Assembly (NCBI GenBank): GCA_964486475.1
Contig: CAZALZ010000013.1
Coordinates: 1 to 29,596 of the forward strand
DNA: 29,596 nucleotides
DNA from: an uncultured Gammaproteobacteria bacterium
GTDB taxonomy: Bacteria; Patescibacteriota; Patescibacteriia; Patescibacteriales; WJLG01
Direction of reading: 5' to 3'
Part shown: positions 3,673-29,596 of the stretch, one piece after another
How positions within the stretch are numbered: position 1 is the stretch's first letter
Layout: every line of letters starts with the position of its first letter
Made by a program: the position numbers and the translations under genes
Notes under the pieces: generated by a model
Told to the model about the DNA's origin: nothing
Databases searched by the model: none
What the model saw: the letters and a program-made list of their open reading frames with translations, nothing else

Positions 3673-3688
3673 TCCGCCAGCCGGCGGA
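3673..3688. repeat. GC mini-hairpin TCCGCC-agcc-GGCGGA (first of three related copies)
   Basis: Perfect 6-bp arms. Related hairpins: GTCCGCC-caa-GGCGGAC at 4017-4033 and CCGCCC-a-GGGCGG at 4970-4982. Confidence 0.5.
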
Positions 3689-3793: not shown

Positions 3794-4855
3794 ATGATAA
3801 TTTTAGGGATAGAAACAAGTTGCGATGAGACAGCCGCCAGTGTGGTTGATGGTAAAGGAAATAGCGTTAAAGTGCTTTCCAATGTGGTTTCTTCGCAGAT
3901 AGAAATTCATAAAAAATATAATGGCGTGGTGCCGGAAATAGCGGCGCGCGAACATGTTTTAAATATTTTGCCGGTTGTGAATGAGGCTTTGCTTAAAGCC
4001 GGTATAAACCCTCCCCGTCCGCCCAAGGCGGACACCTCTCCAAAGAGGGGAATTAAATTAGACGCTATTGCAATAACGGCCGGACCGGGGTTGATAACTT
4101 CGCTTTTAGTCGGCGTGGAAACCGCCAAGACTTTGGCGTATTCCTGGAATTTGCCTTTAATCGGCGTCAACCATATAGAGGGCCACATCCGCGCGAATTT
4201 TATAAACAACGACGAAAAGATAAAATTGCCGGCGATAATTCTGACTGTTTCCGGCGGACACACGATGCTGGTTTTGATGGATAAAAAAAATAAATTCAAA
4301 ATTATCGGCGAGACGCGCGACGATGCGGCCGGCGAAGCTTTTGATAAAGCGGCTAAGCTTTTGAATCTCGGTTATCCGGGCGGGCCGATAGTTTCTAAAA
4401 CAGCTAAAGAGTTTAATTCTGCTCCGAGAGAAGATATAAAACTGCCGCGGCCGATGTTAAATGACAAAAATTTTGACTTTTCTTTTTCTGGTCTTAAAAC
4501 TGCCCTGCTTTATAAAATAAAAAAAGATGATAGTTGGCAAAAGCGCGTGCCGGAATATTGTTATGAATTTGAGCGCGCGGTTGTAGAAACTTTGGTCGGG
4601 AAAATGATCAAAGCGGCGAAAAAATATCAGGCCAAAACCGTAATGCTTTCCGGCGGCGTGTCGGCCAATTCGGTTTTACGGGAAGAATTTATCAAGGCGG
4701 CTGAGAAAGAAAAATTAAATTATCATATTCCAGAATTGCAATACACGACCGATAATGCCGCCATGATCGCCGCGGCCGGATATTTCCGCGCGAAAGAAAA
4801 AAAGTTCACGCCCTGGAAAAATATCAAAGCTGACTGCAATTTAGAGCTTAAATAA
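3794..4855 (+). CDS. tsaD: tRNA N6-adenosine threonylcarbamoyltransferase TsaD
   Basis: MIILGIETSCDETAASVV, TAGPGL, NHIEGH, DDAAGEAFDKAAKLL, GLDFSFSGLKT-like and GGVSAN motifs. Start set at ATG 3794; the track extension (3695) has no homology-like content. Confidence 0.92.
   Translation: MIILGIETSCDETAASVVDGKGNSVKVLSNVVSSQIEIHKKYNGVVPEIAAREHVLNILPVVNEALLKAGINPPRPPKADTSPKRGIKLDAIAITAGPGLITSLLVGVETAKTLAYSWNLPLIGVNHIEGHIRANFINNDEKIKLPAIILTVSGGHTMLVLMDKKNKFKIIGETRDDAAGEAFDKAAKLLNLGYPGGPIVSKTAKEFNSAPREDIKLPRPMLNDKNFDFSFSGLKTALLYKIKKDDSWQKRVPEYCYEFERAVVETLVGKMIKAAKKYQAKTVMLSGGVSANSVLREEFIKAAEKEKLNYHIPELQYTTDNAAMIAAAGYFRAKEKKFTPWKNIKADCNLELK
4008..4054 (+). repeat. palindromic repeat element copy A, in frame inside tsaD
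   Basis: CCCTCCCC-GTCCGCC-caa-GGCGGAC-a-CCTCT-ccaa-AGAGGGGAATT. It shares the 11-mer AGAGGGGAATT with 19226-19236 and 28975-28985. It encodes NPPRPPKADTSPKRG. Confidence 0.7.
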
Positions 4856-4995
4856 TTGTCATTCCGATGCGAAGCGAGGAATCTGTAAAACCGTTTTGAA
4901 AATTACTGACGCACAATCTATTATCACAAGACAAATTTTATCGCGCGCAGGATTAAGACAGATCCTTCTCCGCCCAGGGCGGATCAGGATGACAA
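4856..4995. repeat. MITE-like element with imperfect terminal inverted repeats, each end a nested hairpin
   Basis: Left end is TTGTCATTCCGATGCGAAGCGAGGAATCTGT. The reverse complement of the right end is TTGTCATCCTGATCCGCCCTGGGCGGAGAAGGATCTGT. Left hairpin ATTCC...GGAAT (4861-4882). Right hairpin ATCCT-tct-CCGCCC-a-GGGCGG-atc-AGGAT (4962-4990). Confidence 0.55.
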
Positions 4996-5006
4996 AATAA
5001 AACAAT

Positions 5007-5207
5007 ATGCGAACAGAACCGCCATTCAATATTGAAACTTTGCCGAATCCTTACGAGATTAAACCGGTGGAAAAAATCCATCTGGTTGATAATGACCAAT
5101 TAAAAGAGGACGAAGCGGAATGGAAAAAAAGAAAAAACCAAAAGAGATCCGTTTTACCGCCGGATCCTTTCGGCGAGAAAGGAAATAAAATAGATATTTT
5201 AGGATAA
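5007..5207 (+). CDS. hypothetical small protein (66 aa)
   Basis: ORF only; no recognisable motif and no clear SD. It starts 12 nt after the MITE-like element. Confidence 0.35.
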   Translation: MRTEPPFNIETLPNPYEIKPVEKIHLVDNDQLKEDEAEWKKRKNQKRSVLPPDPFGEKGNKIDILG

Positions 5208-5279: not shown

Positions 5280-5924
5280 TTATTCCGCATGACTTTTTAT
5301 AAAATTTCTTACCTCGGGCGATATTCCACCTGTTTCATCTGCATTTTCAGCTGTCACCGAGAGTTCTTGTACTGTCGGATCAGCATCGGTTCCATTATGA
5401 AAATCAAATCTAAAGAATTCACCATTGCTATTCTGCCCCCAAAATGAATTATTGTCGATATTGTCTTGCATTACATTTTTTACTTTGCCAATCTTCTCCT
5501 CCATTTTTGATATTATTTTAACAGTCCATTCACCCTCGCTTTTTTCTGGTTCACTTGAAGATTCACTGATAAAATATATTCCTTGGTTCTCATGATGTTT
5601 TTCTTGTGCTTCAACGAGAGCTGGTGAAATTAAAGAAACGGCTACGGTGGCAATTTTTAAATAGCAATTAATTCTATTTCGAAATTTTTCTACTTTTGAA
5701 GAAATAAAATTTTTTAAATTTTCCGGCCCACCTGTTTTTTGAGATAATTTTTCAACCTCTTTTGCGATTTCTTCTTCTCCAACGCTTTCTTTTTCCATTC
5801 TTTCCGTTAATATGTCTAAAGCCTCTTCTGTTTTTGAAGTATTTTCCAGATTTTCCATTTCAGAAGTTGATTTATCCACCACTTCTCTTTTTGTTGGGTC
5901 AAATTTTTCAAATTCATTTTCCAT
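5280..5924 (-). CDS. hypothetical protein: acidic N-terminal half, one central hydrophobic segment
   Basis: 214-aa ORF with an E/K-rich N-terminus and a hydrophobic stretch IATVAVSLISPALV. No recognised family. Visibly more AT-rich than neighbouring housekeeping genes. Confidence 0.6.
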   Translation of the reverse strand: MENEFEKFDPTKREVVDKSTSEMENLENTSKTEEALDILTERMEKESVGEEEIAKEVEKLSQKTGGPENLKNFISSKVEKFRNRINCYLKIATVAVSLISPALVEAQEKHHENQGIYFISESSSEPEKSEGEWTVKIISKMEEKIGKVKNVMQDNIDNNSFWGQNSNGEFFRFDFHNGTDADPTVQELSVTAENADETGGISPEVRNFIKSHAE

Positions 5925-16157: not shown

Positions 16158-16628
16158 ATGTCCGAAGAAAAAAAAGTTAAAACAGAAGAAAAAACTGTTG
16201 ACGAGAAAATTCTCGAATTAGAGGCCGAACTGAAGGACGCTAACGATAAGTATATGCGCGCGTTGGCTGAACAGCAGAATCTGGTCAAACGCCAAGCGAG
16301 TGAGAAAGAAGAATTTATCAAATACGCCAACCAGGAAATCATTTTAGAATTCTTAAGCGTTTATGATCACTTGAGAATGTCAATAGATTTCTTGCCGGCC
16401 GAAGAAAAGGACAATGCTTGGGTTAAGGGAGTTGAAATGACGATCAAGCAATTTAAAGATTTATTAAATGTGAATGGCGTGGAAGAAATAAAAACCGTTG
16501 GCGAGAAATTCGACCCGAATACTATGGAAGCCACCGAAGGCACGGGGGAGAAGGTCGCGAAAGAAATTATGGCGGGGTATAAGCTGAATGGGAAAGTAAT
16601 TCGCGCCGCTCGAGTTTTGTTAGAATAA
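16158..16628 (+). CDS. grpE: nucleotide exchange factor GrpE
   Basis: Coiled-coil N-terminus (LELEAELKDANDKYMRALAEQQNLVKR), C-terminal beta domain (FDPNTMEA...GYKLNGKVIRAARV). Start at ATG 16158. Confidence 0.9.
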   Translation: MSEEKKVKTEEKTVDEKILELEAELKDANDKYMRALAEQQNLVKRQASEKEEFIKYANQEIILEFLSVYDHLRMSIDFLPAEEKDNAWVKGVEMTIKQFKDLLNVNGVEEIKTVGEKFDPNTMEATEGTGEKVAKEIMAGYKLNGKVIRAARVLLE

Positions 16629-17234: not shown

Positions 17235-19154
17235 ATGAGTAAAATATTAGGAATCGACCTAGGAACAACTAACAGTGCCATGGCCATAATCGAAGGCGGA
17301 GCGCCTAAGATTCTGGAGAATGCCGAAGGAATGAGAACAACTCCTTCCATTGTCGCAATCTCTAAATCCGGCGAATGGCTGGTTGGCGCTGCGGCTAAAC
17401 GTCAGGCTGTCACCAATCCCGAGAACACCATCTTTGAGATGAAACGTTTGATCGGCCGTCACTTCAATGACGAAGAAGTTCAGCGCGATTTGAAGAATAT
17501 GCCTTACAAGATCGTGCAGGCCGGAGAAGGCGTGAAAATCATTGTTTCCGGAAAAGAATACACTCCGCAGGAAATTTCTGCCAAGGTTTTGGCGAAATTG
17601 AAAGCTGATGCTGAAGCTCGTTTGGGCGAAAAAATTACCGAAGCGATCATTACTGTTCCGGCTTATTTTGATGATTCTCAAAGACAAGCCACTAAGGATG
17701 CTGGTCAGATCGCCGGTTTGAATGTTAAGCGTATCATCAATGAGCCAACCTCAGCCGCTTTGGCTTACGGTTTGGACAAGAAGCACGGCCATCAAATCGT
17801 TGTCTACGATTTGGGCGGCGGAACTTTTGATGTTTCCATTCTTGATGTCGGCGGCGATAGCGTTATGGTTAAAGCAACTAATGGCGACACTCATTTAGGC
17901 GGCGCGGATTTTGACCAGCGCGTTATCAATTGGATTTTAGAAGAATTCCGCAAAGAGGAAGGCGTCGATCTTTCCAAAGATCCGTTGGCTTTGCAGAGAA
18001 TCAAGGAAGCGGCCGAGAAAGCCAAGATCGAATTGTCTTCTTCTATGGAGACAGAAATCAATCAGCCGTTCATAACTGTTGGTGCTGAAGGTCCGAAACA
18101 TTTAGTTAAAAAAATGACTCGCGCGAAATTGGAAGAGTTGGTCGGCGATTTGGTCGAGAAAACCATTGAGCCTTGCAAAAAGGCTTTGACCGATGCCGGT
18201 TTGAAAGTGGAGGATTTGGAAGAAGTTGTTTTGGTTGGCGGTATGACTCGTATGCCAATGGTGCAAAAATTGGTTAAAGACTTCTTTAAGAAAGAACCGA
18301 ATATGTCGGTTAATCCGGACGAAGTGGTTGCAGCTGGCGCCGCTGTTCAGGGCGGTGTCTTGCAGGGTGATGTTAAAGATATTTTGCTTTTGGATGTTAC
18401 TCCGTTGACTTTAGGTATTGAAACTTTGGGCGGCGTGGCCACTCCATTGATTGAACGCAATACCACTATCCCGACTCAAAAATCGCAAATATTTTCTACC
18501 GCAGCTGATTCTCAGACCAGCGTGGAAATCAAAGTCGTTCAAGGCGAACGCCCGATGGCGGCTGACAATAAAGTCCTGGGCAATTTTATGCTCGACGGAA
18601 TTCCGCCGGCTCCTCGCGGCGTTCCACAGGTTGAAGTTAAATTCGACATTGACGCTAACGGAATTCTGAATGTTTCCGCGATGGACAAAGCTTCCGGTAA
18701 AACTCAGAATATTACTATCACTGCTTCTTCCGGACTTTCCAAGGAAGAAGTGGAGAAGATGAAAAAAGAAGCTGAAGCGCACGCCGAGGAAGACAAGAAA
18801 AAGAAAGAAAAAATAGATTTGAAGAATCAGGCCGATGCCGCGGTTTTCCAAACCGAGAAATTGATCAAAGATATGGGCGCGAAAATGTCGCCAGAAGATG
18901 TCAAAACTTTGACCGACCATGTTGAAGATTTGAAAAAGATCAAAGACGGTGATGACATTGAAGCGATCAAAAAGAAATTGGAAGAAATGAACCAGGCTGC
19001 GCAGACCATCGGCGGGAAAATGTACCAATCCGCCCAGGGCGGACAAGCAGCCGGCGCTCAACCGGGAGCTGAACAAGCTGGCGCCGAACAACCAAAGTCC
19101 GAAGATAAAAAAGACGAAGGCCCAGTTGAAGGTGAATACGAGGAGAAAAAGTAA
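17235..19154 (+). CDS. dnaK: molecular chaperone DnaK (Hsp70)
   Basis: [29 protein letters not shown] and the other canonical Hsp70 signatures; 639 aa. Confidence 0.97.
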
Positions 19155-19212: not shown

Positions 19213-19236
19213 AATTCCCCTCTCAAGAGGGGAATT
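19213..19236. repeat. palindromic repeat element copy B (intergenic, perfect 24-bp palindrome)
   Basis: AATTCCCCTCT-ca-AGAGGGGAATT, 5 nt before the ATG at 19242. Confidence 0.8.
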
Positions 19237-19241
19237 AATTT

Positions 19242-19880
19242 ATGCCTCTATCAGCCAGCCACATAAAATTCGCGCTTGATATGAAAGATTATTTCAAGCC
19301 GAAAAATTTGCAGGAATATTTTTCCGGCGCGGTTTATCCCGATAGCCGTTATTTCAGCGGGCTTGATAGAAAAAAGACTCATAATGAAAATTTTTGGCCG
19401 GAAGAATTTTGGCGCGGCGATGATTTTAAAAAGGGCTGGGCTTCGCACTGCATTTCCGATAGAGCATATACGATAGGAATGAAAAAAATTTTTCCTGCTT
19501 GGGTTGATTTGAATAATAATTTAGTAAAGATTGAAAATACCGCAGTAAAAATTCTTGGCGACATTTTTTCATTCGACGATCCGGAAATTAAAAAAATTAT
19601 TGATTTAATCGAAAATATTTCCGGCTTTAACAATGAAAGCCAAGAAGTAATGAAAGACCACTTGCAAACCATGAAATATTGCTATAAAAAGAGCGGTAAA
19701 GGGGAAATTTCCGATTATTCAAAGGCTATGCGGAAAACTTTGGGGGAGGAGATGGCTGAAAAGGTTATTTCTAAAGCGGAATTTTTTAATGAAGATAATG
19801 AGTTGTTAAAGGCGATAAAGAATTTTTTTCAAGAAGGAATTAAGATTGAGATTAAAAATATTTCGGCTAATTTAAATTAG
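19242..19880 (+). CDS. hypothetical protein (212 aa); weak resemblance to the zinc-dependent phospholipase C-like fold
   Basis: The spacing of His/Asp-containing segments (SASHIKFAL, GAVYPDSRY, KKTHNE, GWASHCISDR) resembles Zn-PLC-like families. The assignment is by eye only. Confidence 0.6.
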   Translation: MPLSASHIKFALDMKDYFKPKNLQEYFSGAVYPDSRYFSGLDRKKTHNENFWPEEFWRGDDFKKGWASHCISDRAYTIGMKKIFPAWVDLNNNLVKIENTAVKILGDIFSFDDPEIKKIIDLIENISGFNNESQEVMKDHLQTMKYCYKKSGKGEISDYSKAMRKTLGEEMAEKVISKAEFFNEDNELLKAIKNFFQEGIKIEIKNISANLN

Positions 19881-28650: not shown

Positions 28651-29596
28651 CTACATTTCTTCAACCACTTCAATCCCCAACAACCCTAATCCATTTTTTA
28701 TAGTTTCTGAAACAGAATTAAGCAGGGTCAGGCGGGCATTTTTGGTTTCTTCGTCAGCTTGCAAAACCGGAACGGCGTGGTAGTAATCGTTTAACATCTG
28801 TGCCAACTCGTAAATATATTTAGCGATTTCTGATGGGTCGTAATTCTTGCCGGCGGTTTCTATAATTTCTGGATATAAAGCAAGTTTTTTAATTAATTCT
28901 ATTTCTTTATTGTTGTTCAGTTTTTCTGCAAAGTTTAACACATCCCGCCTCGGAGTACAGAACCACCCCTCTCGAGAGGGGAATTCTTTATGAAAAATTG
29001 ATTGTATTCTGGCGTAGGCGTATTGGATGTAGGTAGAGGTGAAACCTTCCAGAGCGAGCGCTTTTTCAATATCAAAAGTGATAATGCTTTTAGCGCCGAC
29101 TTTAAGCATTTCGAATTTCATCGCGCCAACGGCGATTTTTTTGGAATTTTCCAGGATTTTTTCTTCGCTCCAATCTTCATGGCGTTTTTTTGTTTCCGCA
29201 ACGCATTTAGACAGAATATCTTGTTTTAATTCTTTGTAAGTGATGACATTGCCGGTGCGGGAGGACATCATACCGGTTGGAAGTTTAACAAAATCGTAGC
29301 CGAGGTGGACAAAATTTTCTTTGAAGCCGGAGAGTTCAAGAATTTTGAACAGTTGTTTGAAATAAAATTCTTGGCGGATATCAACAATAACAATGGAAGT
29401 ATCAGGGGAAAACCGGCGGTGTTTTTCTTTCGCCAAAGCTAAGTCGGCGACAGCATAAGCGGCGGTGCCGTTAGAGCGCGCAACAACCAAGACGTCCAAG
29501 CCGTATTCTTTTAAGTCGGCGATGATAGCGCCTTCGCTTTTTTTCAGAATGCCTTTTTCCAAAAGGGCCGCTGTGTCTATAACAGAGCCTTTTTCA
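28651..29596 (-). CDS. argS: arginine--tRNA ligase, C-terminal about 315 codons (5' end off window)
   Basis: The frame stays open to the window edge (the track start at 29562 is an internal TTG). MSSRTGNV (KMSKS-equivalent region), YIQYAYARIQSI, C-terminal DALR anticodon-binding domain ending ...GIEVVEEM. Confidence 0.9.
   Translation of the reverse strand, partial: EKGSVIDTAALLEKGILKKSEGAIIADLKEYGLDVLVVARSNGTAAYAVADLALAKEKHRRFSPDTSIVIVDIRQEFYFKQLFKILELSGFKENFVHLGYDFVKLPTGMMSSRTGNVITYKELKQDILSKCVAETKKRHEDWSEEKILENSKKIAVGAMKFEMLKVGAKSIITFDIEKALALEGFTSTYIQYAYARIQSIFHKEFPSREGWFCTPRRDVLNFAEKLNNNKEIELIKKLALYPEIIETAGKNYDPSEIAKYIYELAQMLNDYYHAVPVLQADEETKNARLTLLNSVSETIKNGLGLLGIEVVEEM
28941..28985 (+). 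repeat. palindromic repeat element copy C, inside argS (antisense to the gene)
   Basis: CATCCCGCCTCGGAGTACAGAACCA-CCCCTCT-cg-AGAGGGGAATT. It encodes EFPSREGWFCTPRRD in ArgRS on the minus strand. Confidence 0.65.

Follow-up and report, generated by a model that had tools for sequence, protein, structure and literature searches.

In Neisseria, a longer motif with a fixed orientation, NTS (CGTCATTCCCGCGMAVGCGGGAATCYRG), contains the dRS3 repeat, and similar motifs, known as Ssn-related motifs (SRMs), flank homologues of the 94-amino-acid GIY-YIG protein SsnA (CDD cd10448) in many phyla (Chenal et al., Nat Commun 2025, PMC11893778). SsnA binds the hairpin solely when the DNA is single-stranded, makes its cut 3 nt upstream of the motif, and is inactive on double-stranded DNA, on RNA, and on the complementary strand. 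For cutting, the nucleotides that weigh most are the three ahead of the palindrome; for binding, it is the C right after it. In N. meningitidis, cleavage by Ssn at NTS reduces the integration of transforming DNA that carries NTS (PMC11893778). Here we report that a 140-bp element at positions 4856-4995 of contig CAZALZ010000013.1, just downstream of tsaD, is a facing pair of hairpin repeats of this kind. The element thus adds one more example to a known system and does not represent a new type. The contig is a complete contig of 29,596 bp from a metagenome-assembled genome (MAG) of the Patescibacteria; we call this whole stretch the window, and our statements that something is single-copy apply to it.

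Several other described systems resemble the element. In the Neisseria intergenic mosaic elements (NIMEs), 20-bp dRS3 repeats (ATTCCC-N8-GGGAAT) enclose spacers of 19-214 bp in the arrangement dRS3-RS-dRS3 (Bentley et al. 2007, PMC1797815). Both a NIME and the element in the window have two inverted hairpin repeats around a lower-GC spacer, which gives a high-low-high pattern of GC content (0.54 in the left arm, 0.35 in the centre, and 0.64 in the right arm), and the 77 nt between the cores of the two arms falls within the range of NIME spacers. In contrast to NIMEs, the arms (ATTCC-N12-GGAAT and ATCCT-N19-AGGAT) do not have the exact dRS3 consensus, the unit is isolated instead of lying in an array, and its spacer belongs to no repeated RS family among the loci that we fetched. 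The repetitive extragenic palindromes (REPs), with their doublets (BIMEs or REPINs) and the RAYT enzymes (Bertels & Rainey 2011, PMC3116915), also form doublets of inverted extragenic palindromes with an oriented and conserved flank, can persist for a long time at one locus, and have gene-carrying versions that are flanked by the repeats. But REPs are species-specific, while the motif in the window is conserved across phyla, and the enzyme family associated with it is GIY-YIG and not the Y1 HUH transposases. Finally, miniature inverted-repeat transposable elements (MITEs) such as the Correia elements of Neisseria are intergenic and non-coding, are about 100-150 bp long, and have terminal inverted repeats, all of which is true of our element. 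It differs from them in that no clear target-site duplication can be demonstrated, its termini are self-folding, and its interior is not conserved between copies.

The Ssn system is the closest match. NTS and the two arms are intergenic, oriented hairpins with (C/T)GTCAT at the 5' side, a palindrome, and then ATC-Y-R, and the facing copies in the window resemble the NTS-ssnA-NTS arrangement. More specifically, the HGTCWY flank directly before the palindrome reads TGTCAT on both arms; the base right after the palindrome is a C, followed by Y-R (GGAAT-C-TG on the left, where the C is C4883, and AGGAT-C-TG on the right); and both arms are imperfect palindromes of 20-50 nt that can form a hairpin in single-stranded DNA. 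The arms differ from NTS in that they have a GA...GA internal loop and longer inner hairpins. The setting differs as well: the host belongs to the Patescibacteria, a group that the main text of PMC11893778 does not mention, and the window holds one pair in 29.6 kb instead of hundreds of copies.

An earlier note on this DNA, made from the letters alone, had described a MITE-like element of 140 bp directly after the tsaD stop codon, with termini that are imperfect inverted repeats and nested hairpins, GCGAAGC in the left end, and CCGCCC-a-GGGCGG nested within ATCCT/AGGAT in the right end. As a description of the sequence this is accurate. The element begins at the first base after the stop codon, its terminal inverted repeat is 16 nt long and 81% complementary (13 of 16 bases), a repeat search also returned the nested palindrome of the right arm, and CCGCCC-a-GGGCGG lies inside ATCCT/AGGAT when 4995-4958 is read on the minus strand. 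The centre was said to be 74 nt with no open reading frame (ORF). We measure 71 nt (4887-4957), and it does lack an ATG-started ORF; only mechanical TTG-started ORFs on the minus strand overlap it (4859-5029 and 4953-5099). The stems of the two arms differ (TCC/GGA versus CCT/AGG) and yet each is internally complementary, so the functional and conserved unit is each local hairpin and not the pairing of one arm with the other.

Under DNA folding parameters, both arms take the nested-hairpin fold. The right hairpin has a predicted energy of -9.5 kcal/mol (z = -3.5) and the left hairpin has -2.8 kcal/mol (z = -0.4). The unusual stability of d(GCGAAGC) and of tandem G.A pairs is not captured by nearest-neighbour parameters, and the left hairpin is therefore probably more stable than its value suggests. 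The centre (4887-4957) folds no better than shuffled sequence.

The termini belong to a repeat family of at least several hundred loci in many phyla. We scanned public viral and genome contigs for TTGTCAT-YCY-GA-N(6-30)-RGR-ATCTGT, and metagenomes for a narrower GAT version of this pattern, and obtained 17 viral loci, at least 120 genome loci, and at least 120 metagenome loci. Among the hosts of the genome contigs are Acidobacteriota, Bacteroidota (Pedobacter, Mucilaginibacter, and Prevotella), Treponema, Nitrospira, Chloroflexi, Planctomycetes, Proteobacteria, Clostridia, and several Patescibacteria. The three-base stems covary: all four combinations were found (CCT/AGG, TCT/AGA, TCC/GGA, and CCC/GGG), and 105 of 122 metagenome matches had complementary stems, versus about 25% expected by chance. 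A literal search of the literature for the letters of the motif returned only irrelevant matches to primers.

We also looked at other motifs in the same loci that were not chosen by the scan pattern. Among these, the position before the motif (-1) is T or C in 96% (83% T and 13% C). After the closing C, position +1 is T or C in 95% and position +2 is G or A in 72%. GA just inside both halves of the outer stem is the majority form (58%). The modal motif is the 25-mer GTCATCCTGAGCGAAGCGAAGGATC, whose inner part is GCGAAGC, the same sequence that the earlier note had flagged; of 247 instances of the family, 22 have GAGCGAAGC as their inner sequence, more than any other.

Copies of the arms themselves also turned up. 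The 31-mer of the left arm has an exact copy in metagenome locus L245, and L174 and L187 each have a copy with one mismatch. For the right arm, a copy in L194 shows 92% identity over 39 aligned bases, and the metagenome scan gave many GATCCGCC...GGCGGAGA variants of the right-arm type. What was not found is a repeat of the whole unit: the 71-nt centre is single-copy in the window, and among about 270 fetched loci it matches only itself and L001, a Logan contig that is 100% identical to the window over the 701 bases compared and that we left out of the comparison.

Facing pairs are the commonest arrangement of adjacent motifs. Across 257 loci, we counted 80 convergent pairs, 24 divergent pairs, and 39 direct pairs. 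The median spacer of the convergent pairs is 26 nt; seven pairs have spacers of 61-150 nt, which is the range that holds the window's 77-nt pair, and the class with spacers of 151-500 nt takes in cassettes with ssn genes. In L032, L039, and L027, spacers are common to pairs within one genome, as in REPINs. Another MAG, from the Parcubacteria (L049), has a 146-bp pair with an AT-rich spacer of 96 nt, which does not align with the centre of our element in either orientation. In two Bacteroidota-like contigs, L187 (200-680 and 4860-5290) and L067 (960-2415), SRMs lie inside larger mosaic repeats that share sub-blocks such as ATGGGCAGTGCGGnCTnnAGCCGCAnTGCCCTC. SRMs also occur there in tandem arrays beside an ssn-like gene, which resembles the NIME arrays of Neisseria.

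To see which genes accompany the motif, we clustered the ORFs within 300 nt of it without choosing a family beforehand. With the first 137 loci and again with all 257 loci (918 ORFs), the top cluster was a GIY-YIG protein of about 90-110 amino acids, from 10 loci. PF01541 was confirmed in three of the neighbouring GIY-YIG proteins. We read two cases base by base. In L096 and L056, the GIY-YIG gene lies between two GA-type motifs, one on the plus strand upstream and one on the minus strand downstream, whose ends read TTGTCAT...ATCTGT on the left and the complementary ...AGAT...ATGACA or ...GATGACA on the right, which is the layout seen in the window. GIY-YIG genes also lie by motifs in L150, L205, L208, L250, and L253. 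Since facing pairs are the commonest arrangement, and since ssn-like genes lie between facing motifs elsewhere, we describe the element in the window as having the architecture of an SRM-ssn-SRM cassette without the gene.

Another group of GIY-YIG genes was considered as the source of the cognate enzyme and rejected. These UPF0213-like genes, for proteins of 84-86 amino acids, lie between tRNA-Glu and tsaD in L142 (3484-3830), L145 (3475-3806), and L272 (970-1230), and the window does not have one; they have different flanking hairpins and no SRMs within 400 nt. For example, the gene in L142 is flanked by the nested hairpin TCACCC-A-GGCCGAAGGCC-GTCC-GGGTGA. In L142 and L145 the 5' part of tRNA-Glu is partially duplicated alongside the gene, which points to a GIY-YIG cassette with the tRNA gene as its insertion site.

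We compared the neighbourhood of tsaD in ten relatives; the TsaD relatives of the window are named as Patescibacteria. In most relatives in this lineage, tsaD is followed by a small gene for a protein of 60-73 amino acids (MRT(E/D/N)PPF...GxKGxxID), for which we found no Pfam family. In the ancestral arrangement this gene lies 10-23 nt past tsaD, and it therefore serves as a marker for the right edge of the insertion site. In four relatives the site is empty: the gap between tsaD and the small gene is 12 nt in L267, 10 nt in L270, 11 nt in L271, and 23 nt in L272. The gap in the first three holds a GGAG ribosome-binding site, which has given way to the SRM pair in the window and in L140. Since no empty site is longer than 10-23 nt, the 71-nt centre does not come from ancestral intergenic DNA. 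The earlier note had proposed to look for empty sites in related strains, and finding them implies that the element is a discrete acquired unit. That note would have dropped its reading for a single-copy sequence with no related termini elsewhere and no empty site; related termini and empty sites were both found.

A second filled site comes from L140/L141, which belong to the window's clade. These have an SRM pair at the orthologous position with a different spacer, of 29 nt, and their motifs are one base of 24 off the NTS consensus. The old 3' end of tsaD (TTAGAGCTTAAATAA) and the left motif align with the window. L139 has no SRM and the small gene is deleted. A tree of TsaD places the window together with L139 and L140 in one clade and the genomes with empty sites in the other. 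The simplest reading is that one insertion occurred right after the tsaD stop codon in the ancestor of the clade, and that the features of the hairpins were then kept while the spacer and the inner hairpins turned over and L139 lost the small gene.

The junction has changed in other ways as well. Just after the present stop codon of tsaD, L140 (5099-5253) and L141 have an insertion of about 125 nt that is rich in GC and strongly self-complementary; it has no match in Rfam. The present 3' end of tsaD in these genomes is a new copy that was brought by the insertion, and the old end (AAAGCGATTGTAGCTTAGAGCTTAAATAA) was left directly before the left SRM. In L142 and L145, the gap between tsaD and the small gene is filled by a different GC-rich element, with CACCCCTCCC..GGAGGGGAAT sequences similar to a small palindrome family in the window that is described below. 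More broadly, relatives differ in the whole stretch from tsaD to the PPDK gene. The window has the SRM pair, the small gene, and a minus-strand ORF of 214 amino acids (5280-5924) without a confident domain there; in L139, the closest relative, the stretch is just 87 bp long; and other relatives have different ORFs. The features of the window are listed in Table 1.

Table 1. Features in and around the hairpin pair, with positions in the window
Feature	Position	Strand	Details
tsaD, 353 aa	3794..4855	+	Translation; homologues with PF00814, named TsaD in their sources; TAA stop at 4853-4855
Left SRM hairpin	4856..4886	+	TTGTCATTCCGATGCGAAGCGAGGAATCTGT = TT-GTC-[ATTCC]-GA-T-[GCGAAGC]-GA-[GGAAT]-C-TGT; core 4858-4883
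GCGAAGC inner mini-hairpin of left SRM	4869..4875	+	Read from the sequence
AT-rich spacer, 71 nt (77 nt between cores)	4887..4957	.	GC 0.35; unmatched elsewhere; folds no better than shuffles
Sigma-70-like promoter match TTGAAA-17-TATTAT	4896..4924	+	Towards the small gene; 10 of 12 positions, a match to the consensus only
Right SRM hairpin	4958..4995	-	TTGTCATCCTGATCCGCCCTGGGCGGAGAAGGATCTGT = TT-GTC-[ATCCT]-GA-[TCCGCCCTGGGCGGA]-GA-[AGGAT]-C-TGT; core 4961-4993
Inner palindrome of right SRM, TCCGCCCAGGGCGGA	4969..4983	.	Same 15-mer again at 19029-19043
Conserved small gene, 66 aa	5007..5207	+	MRTEPPFNI...DPFGEKGNKIDILG; homologous ORFs after tsaD in L140, L145, L267, L270, L271, and L272

Given these results, we think it likely that the element is a non-autonomous unit made of a facing SRM pair around an AT-rich spacer of 71-77 nt, with the cassette architecture and without the ssn gene. 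Each arm consists of (T)GTC at the 5' side, an outer stem of 5 bp (ATYCY/RGRAT), a GA...GA loop that encloses a variable inner hairpin, and a closing C-T-G. If the analogy with Neisseria holds, a small single-domain GIY-YIG Ssn protein encoded elsewhere in the genome would recognise each arm only when the DNA is single-stranded, bind the hairpin, and nick about 3 nt to the 5' side of the motif. With the Neisseria offset, the cuts are predicted near 4853/4854 in the top strand and near 4997/4998 in the bottom strand, just outside both ends of the element. A further step would be that such pairs are genuine mobile elements, moved in trans by Ssn via single-stranded intermediates, as an equivalent of REPIN and RAYT from another nuclease superfamily. 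We see this as a minority prospect, with perhaps a modest chance of being right.

Several observations weigh against this account. We found no ssn gene in the window, either with tblastn or with an hmmsearch of an Ssn profile (best E = 2), and there is just one SRM pair in its 29.6 kb. The published SRM string, HGTCWYN(0-2)YYVSBRHN(0-5)WNVSBRGN(0-2)RNCYNB, matches the NTS consensus and both motifs of L140, but it fails on both arms in the window and on the common GAGCGAAGCGA GA...GA type; the GA...GA loop and the longer inner hairpin account for the mismatch. We therefore treat the arms as a putative variant class of SRM, whose probable link to Ssn comes from our survey of neighbouring genes and not from the published pattern. 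In turn, the Ssn-like neighbours are tentatively tied to N. meningitidis SsnA and cd10448 only through the identity of the motif and the gene architecture, and searches of PDB and NCBIfam returned no family for them and nothing closer than a weak match to UPF0213. The mobilisation of such motif pairs by Ssn is itself only a hypothesis of the authors who described the system (PMC11893778). Also, genomes whose TsaD proteins have diverged by about 17% have the pair in common, which makes it old, and perhaps no nuclease acts on it any longer.

How else could the element be explained? It could be a chance inverted repeat in ordinary intergenic DNA, and the weak nearest-neighbour energy of the left hairpin (z = -0.4) would fit, but not even one strict motif (TTGTCAT-YCY-GA-N6-30-RGR-ATCTGT with a complementary stem) arose in 200 first-order Markov simulations of the window, which has two, and exact and near-exact copies of the arms are present in unrelated metagenome contigs. 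We consider the odds of coincidence negligible. (A loose match to the motif at 16386-16441 does appear to be chance: its "loop" is 46 nt of unstructured sequence, and the simulations give 0.2 loose matches per window.) A classical MITE would be a deletion derivative of a DDE-type insertion sequence that is mobilised in trans via its terminal inverted repeats and makes a target-site duplication. The size of 140 bp, the terminal inverted repeat, the AATAA on both flanks, and the empty site in relatives would all be expected of one. But each arm is a self-folding member of a hairpin family that spans phyla, the stems of the arms differ while each is internally complementary, the centre has no other copy, no transposase family recurs next to the motif, and the recurrent neighbour is a GIY-YIG nuclease for single-stranded DNA and not a demonstrated transposase. 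As for the AATAA, which bears on the earlier note's proposal to look for target-site duplications, it sits in A-rich and partly ancestral sequence, resembling the TAAAAYAT that precedes the small gene at the empty sites, and no clear duplication can be demonstrated. A classical MITE is thus very unlikely. The earlier note's broader wording, a "MITE-like" non-autonomous mobile element, holds up better, in that the unit is acquired, non-coding, and hairpin-ended, has empty sites, and has gene-carrying SRM-ssn-SRM counterparts.

The element could instead be a REP doublet (a REPIN or BIME) that is maintained by RAYT, a Y1 HUH transposase of the IS200/IS605 type. The architecture, with two inverted hairpin repeats and a conserved, oriented 5' flank, is the same, and shared spacers within L032, L039, and L027 are reminiscent of it, but there was no Y1 transposase among the clusters of the 918 neighbouring ORFs, where GIY-YIG ranked first, and the motif is of the NTS/SRM type, which was shown biochemically to be a substrate of Ssn (PMC11893778). 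This makes RAYT a highly improbable partner. There is a somewhat better, although still small, chance that the element acts in cis as RNA, by stabilising or terminating the tsaD mRNA at its 3' end or as a promoter or small RNA for the small gene, and this could be a secondary role of the SRM pair. The position directly after a stop codon, the promoter-like sequence in the centre, the absence of the empty sites' GGAG from the small gene, and the folding of the whole element as RNA (z = -2.4 and -2.7) could all indicate such a role. However, we found no U-tract terminator; the window has no Rfam match at gathering thresholds, and no match that overlaps 4856-4995 even at E <= 10; the centre folds no better than shuffles; and the 29-nt spacer of L140 is too short for a promoter, while the small gene is intact there. 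GCGAAGC, moreover, is a stable hairpin specifically as DNA, and RNA is not bound by Ssn (PMC11893778). Termination as the primary function was rejected, given the lack of a U-tract and because L140 has to read through its pair. The small RNA gene that the earlier note had also suggested is not borne out. Its other suggestion, a recombination site, comes near to the known role in Neisseria, where Ssn cleavage lowers the integration of transforming DNA (PMC11893778).

The window also has other palindromes. Within tsaD, 4008-4052 is an in-frame, GC-rich nested palindrome, CCCTCCCC-GTCCGCCcaaGGCGGAC-ACCTCTCCAAAGAGGGG, which encodes PPRPPKADTSPKRG. Relatives differ here by insertions and deletions in TsaD: the stretch is absent from P0006 and P0008, and P0003, P0012, P0014, and P0015 have different inserts. 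It looks like the insertion of a palindromic element into an essential gene, as with the Rickettsia palindromic elements. The identical second copy of the 15-nt palindrome TCCGCCCAGGGCGGA (Table 1) lies in an ORF of 639 amino acids (17235-19154), where it encodes SAQGG, and variants lie at 3673-3688, between tRNA-Glu and tsaD, and at 4017-4033, inside tsaD. By a rough estimate, an identical GC-rich 15-mer is very unlikely to arise by chance in a window with 41% GC. A second family of small palindromes, CCCCTCTC-N-GAGAGGGG followed by AAT, has copies at 19217-19232 (intergenic, just before the ORF that starts at 19242), 28966-28981 (in an ORF on the minus strand, 28651-29562, where it encodes PSREG), and 4036-4052 (in the tsaD insert).

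For annotation, a facing pair of SRMs explains a class of spurious small ORFs and of "MITE-like" calls in metagenome-assembled genomes. The junction after tsaD amounts to a dated insertion, with four relatives that have empty sites and two members of the clade that have filled sites, in which the hairpins were conserved and the spacer turned over. Comparing filled and empty sites gives the type of evidence that is needed to tell selfish mobile DNA from maintained target sites of a nuclease. The GA...GA-loop form, which is common in the Acidobacteriota, Bacteroidota, and other phyla that we sampled, is missed by the published pattern and still flanks Ssn-like genes; this class may be a large, uncharted branch of Ssn specificities. 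More broadly, the hairpin repeats that were recently tied to the Ssn nucleases reach into bacteria of the candidate phyla (Patescibacteria). Patescibacteria are thought to depend on the uptake of DNA, and a system of this kind could act on incoming single-stranded DNA in these bacteria, as it does in Neisseria.

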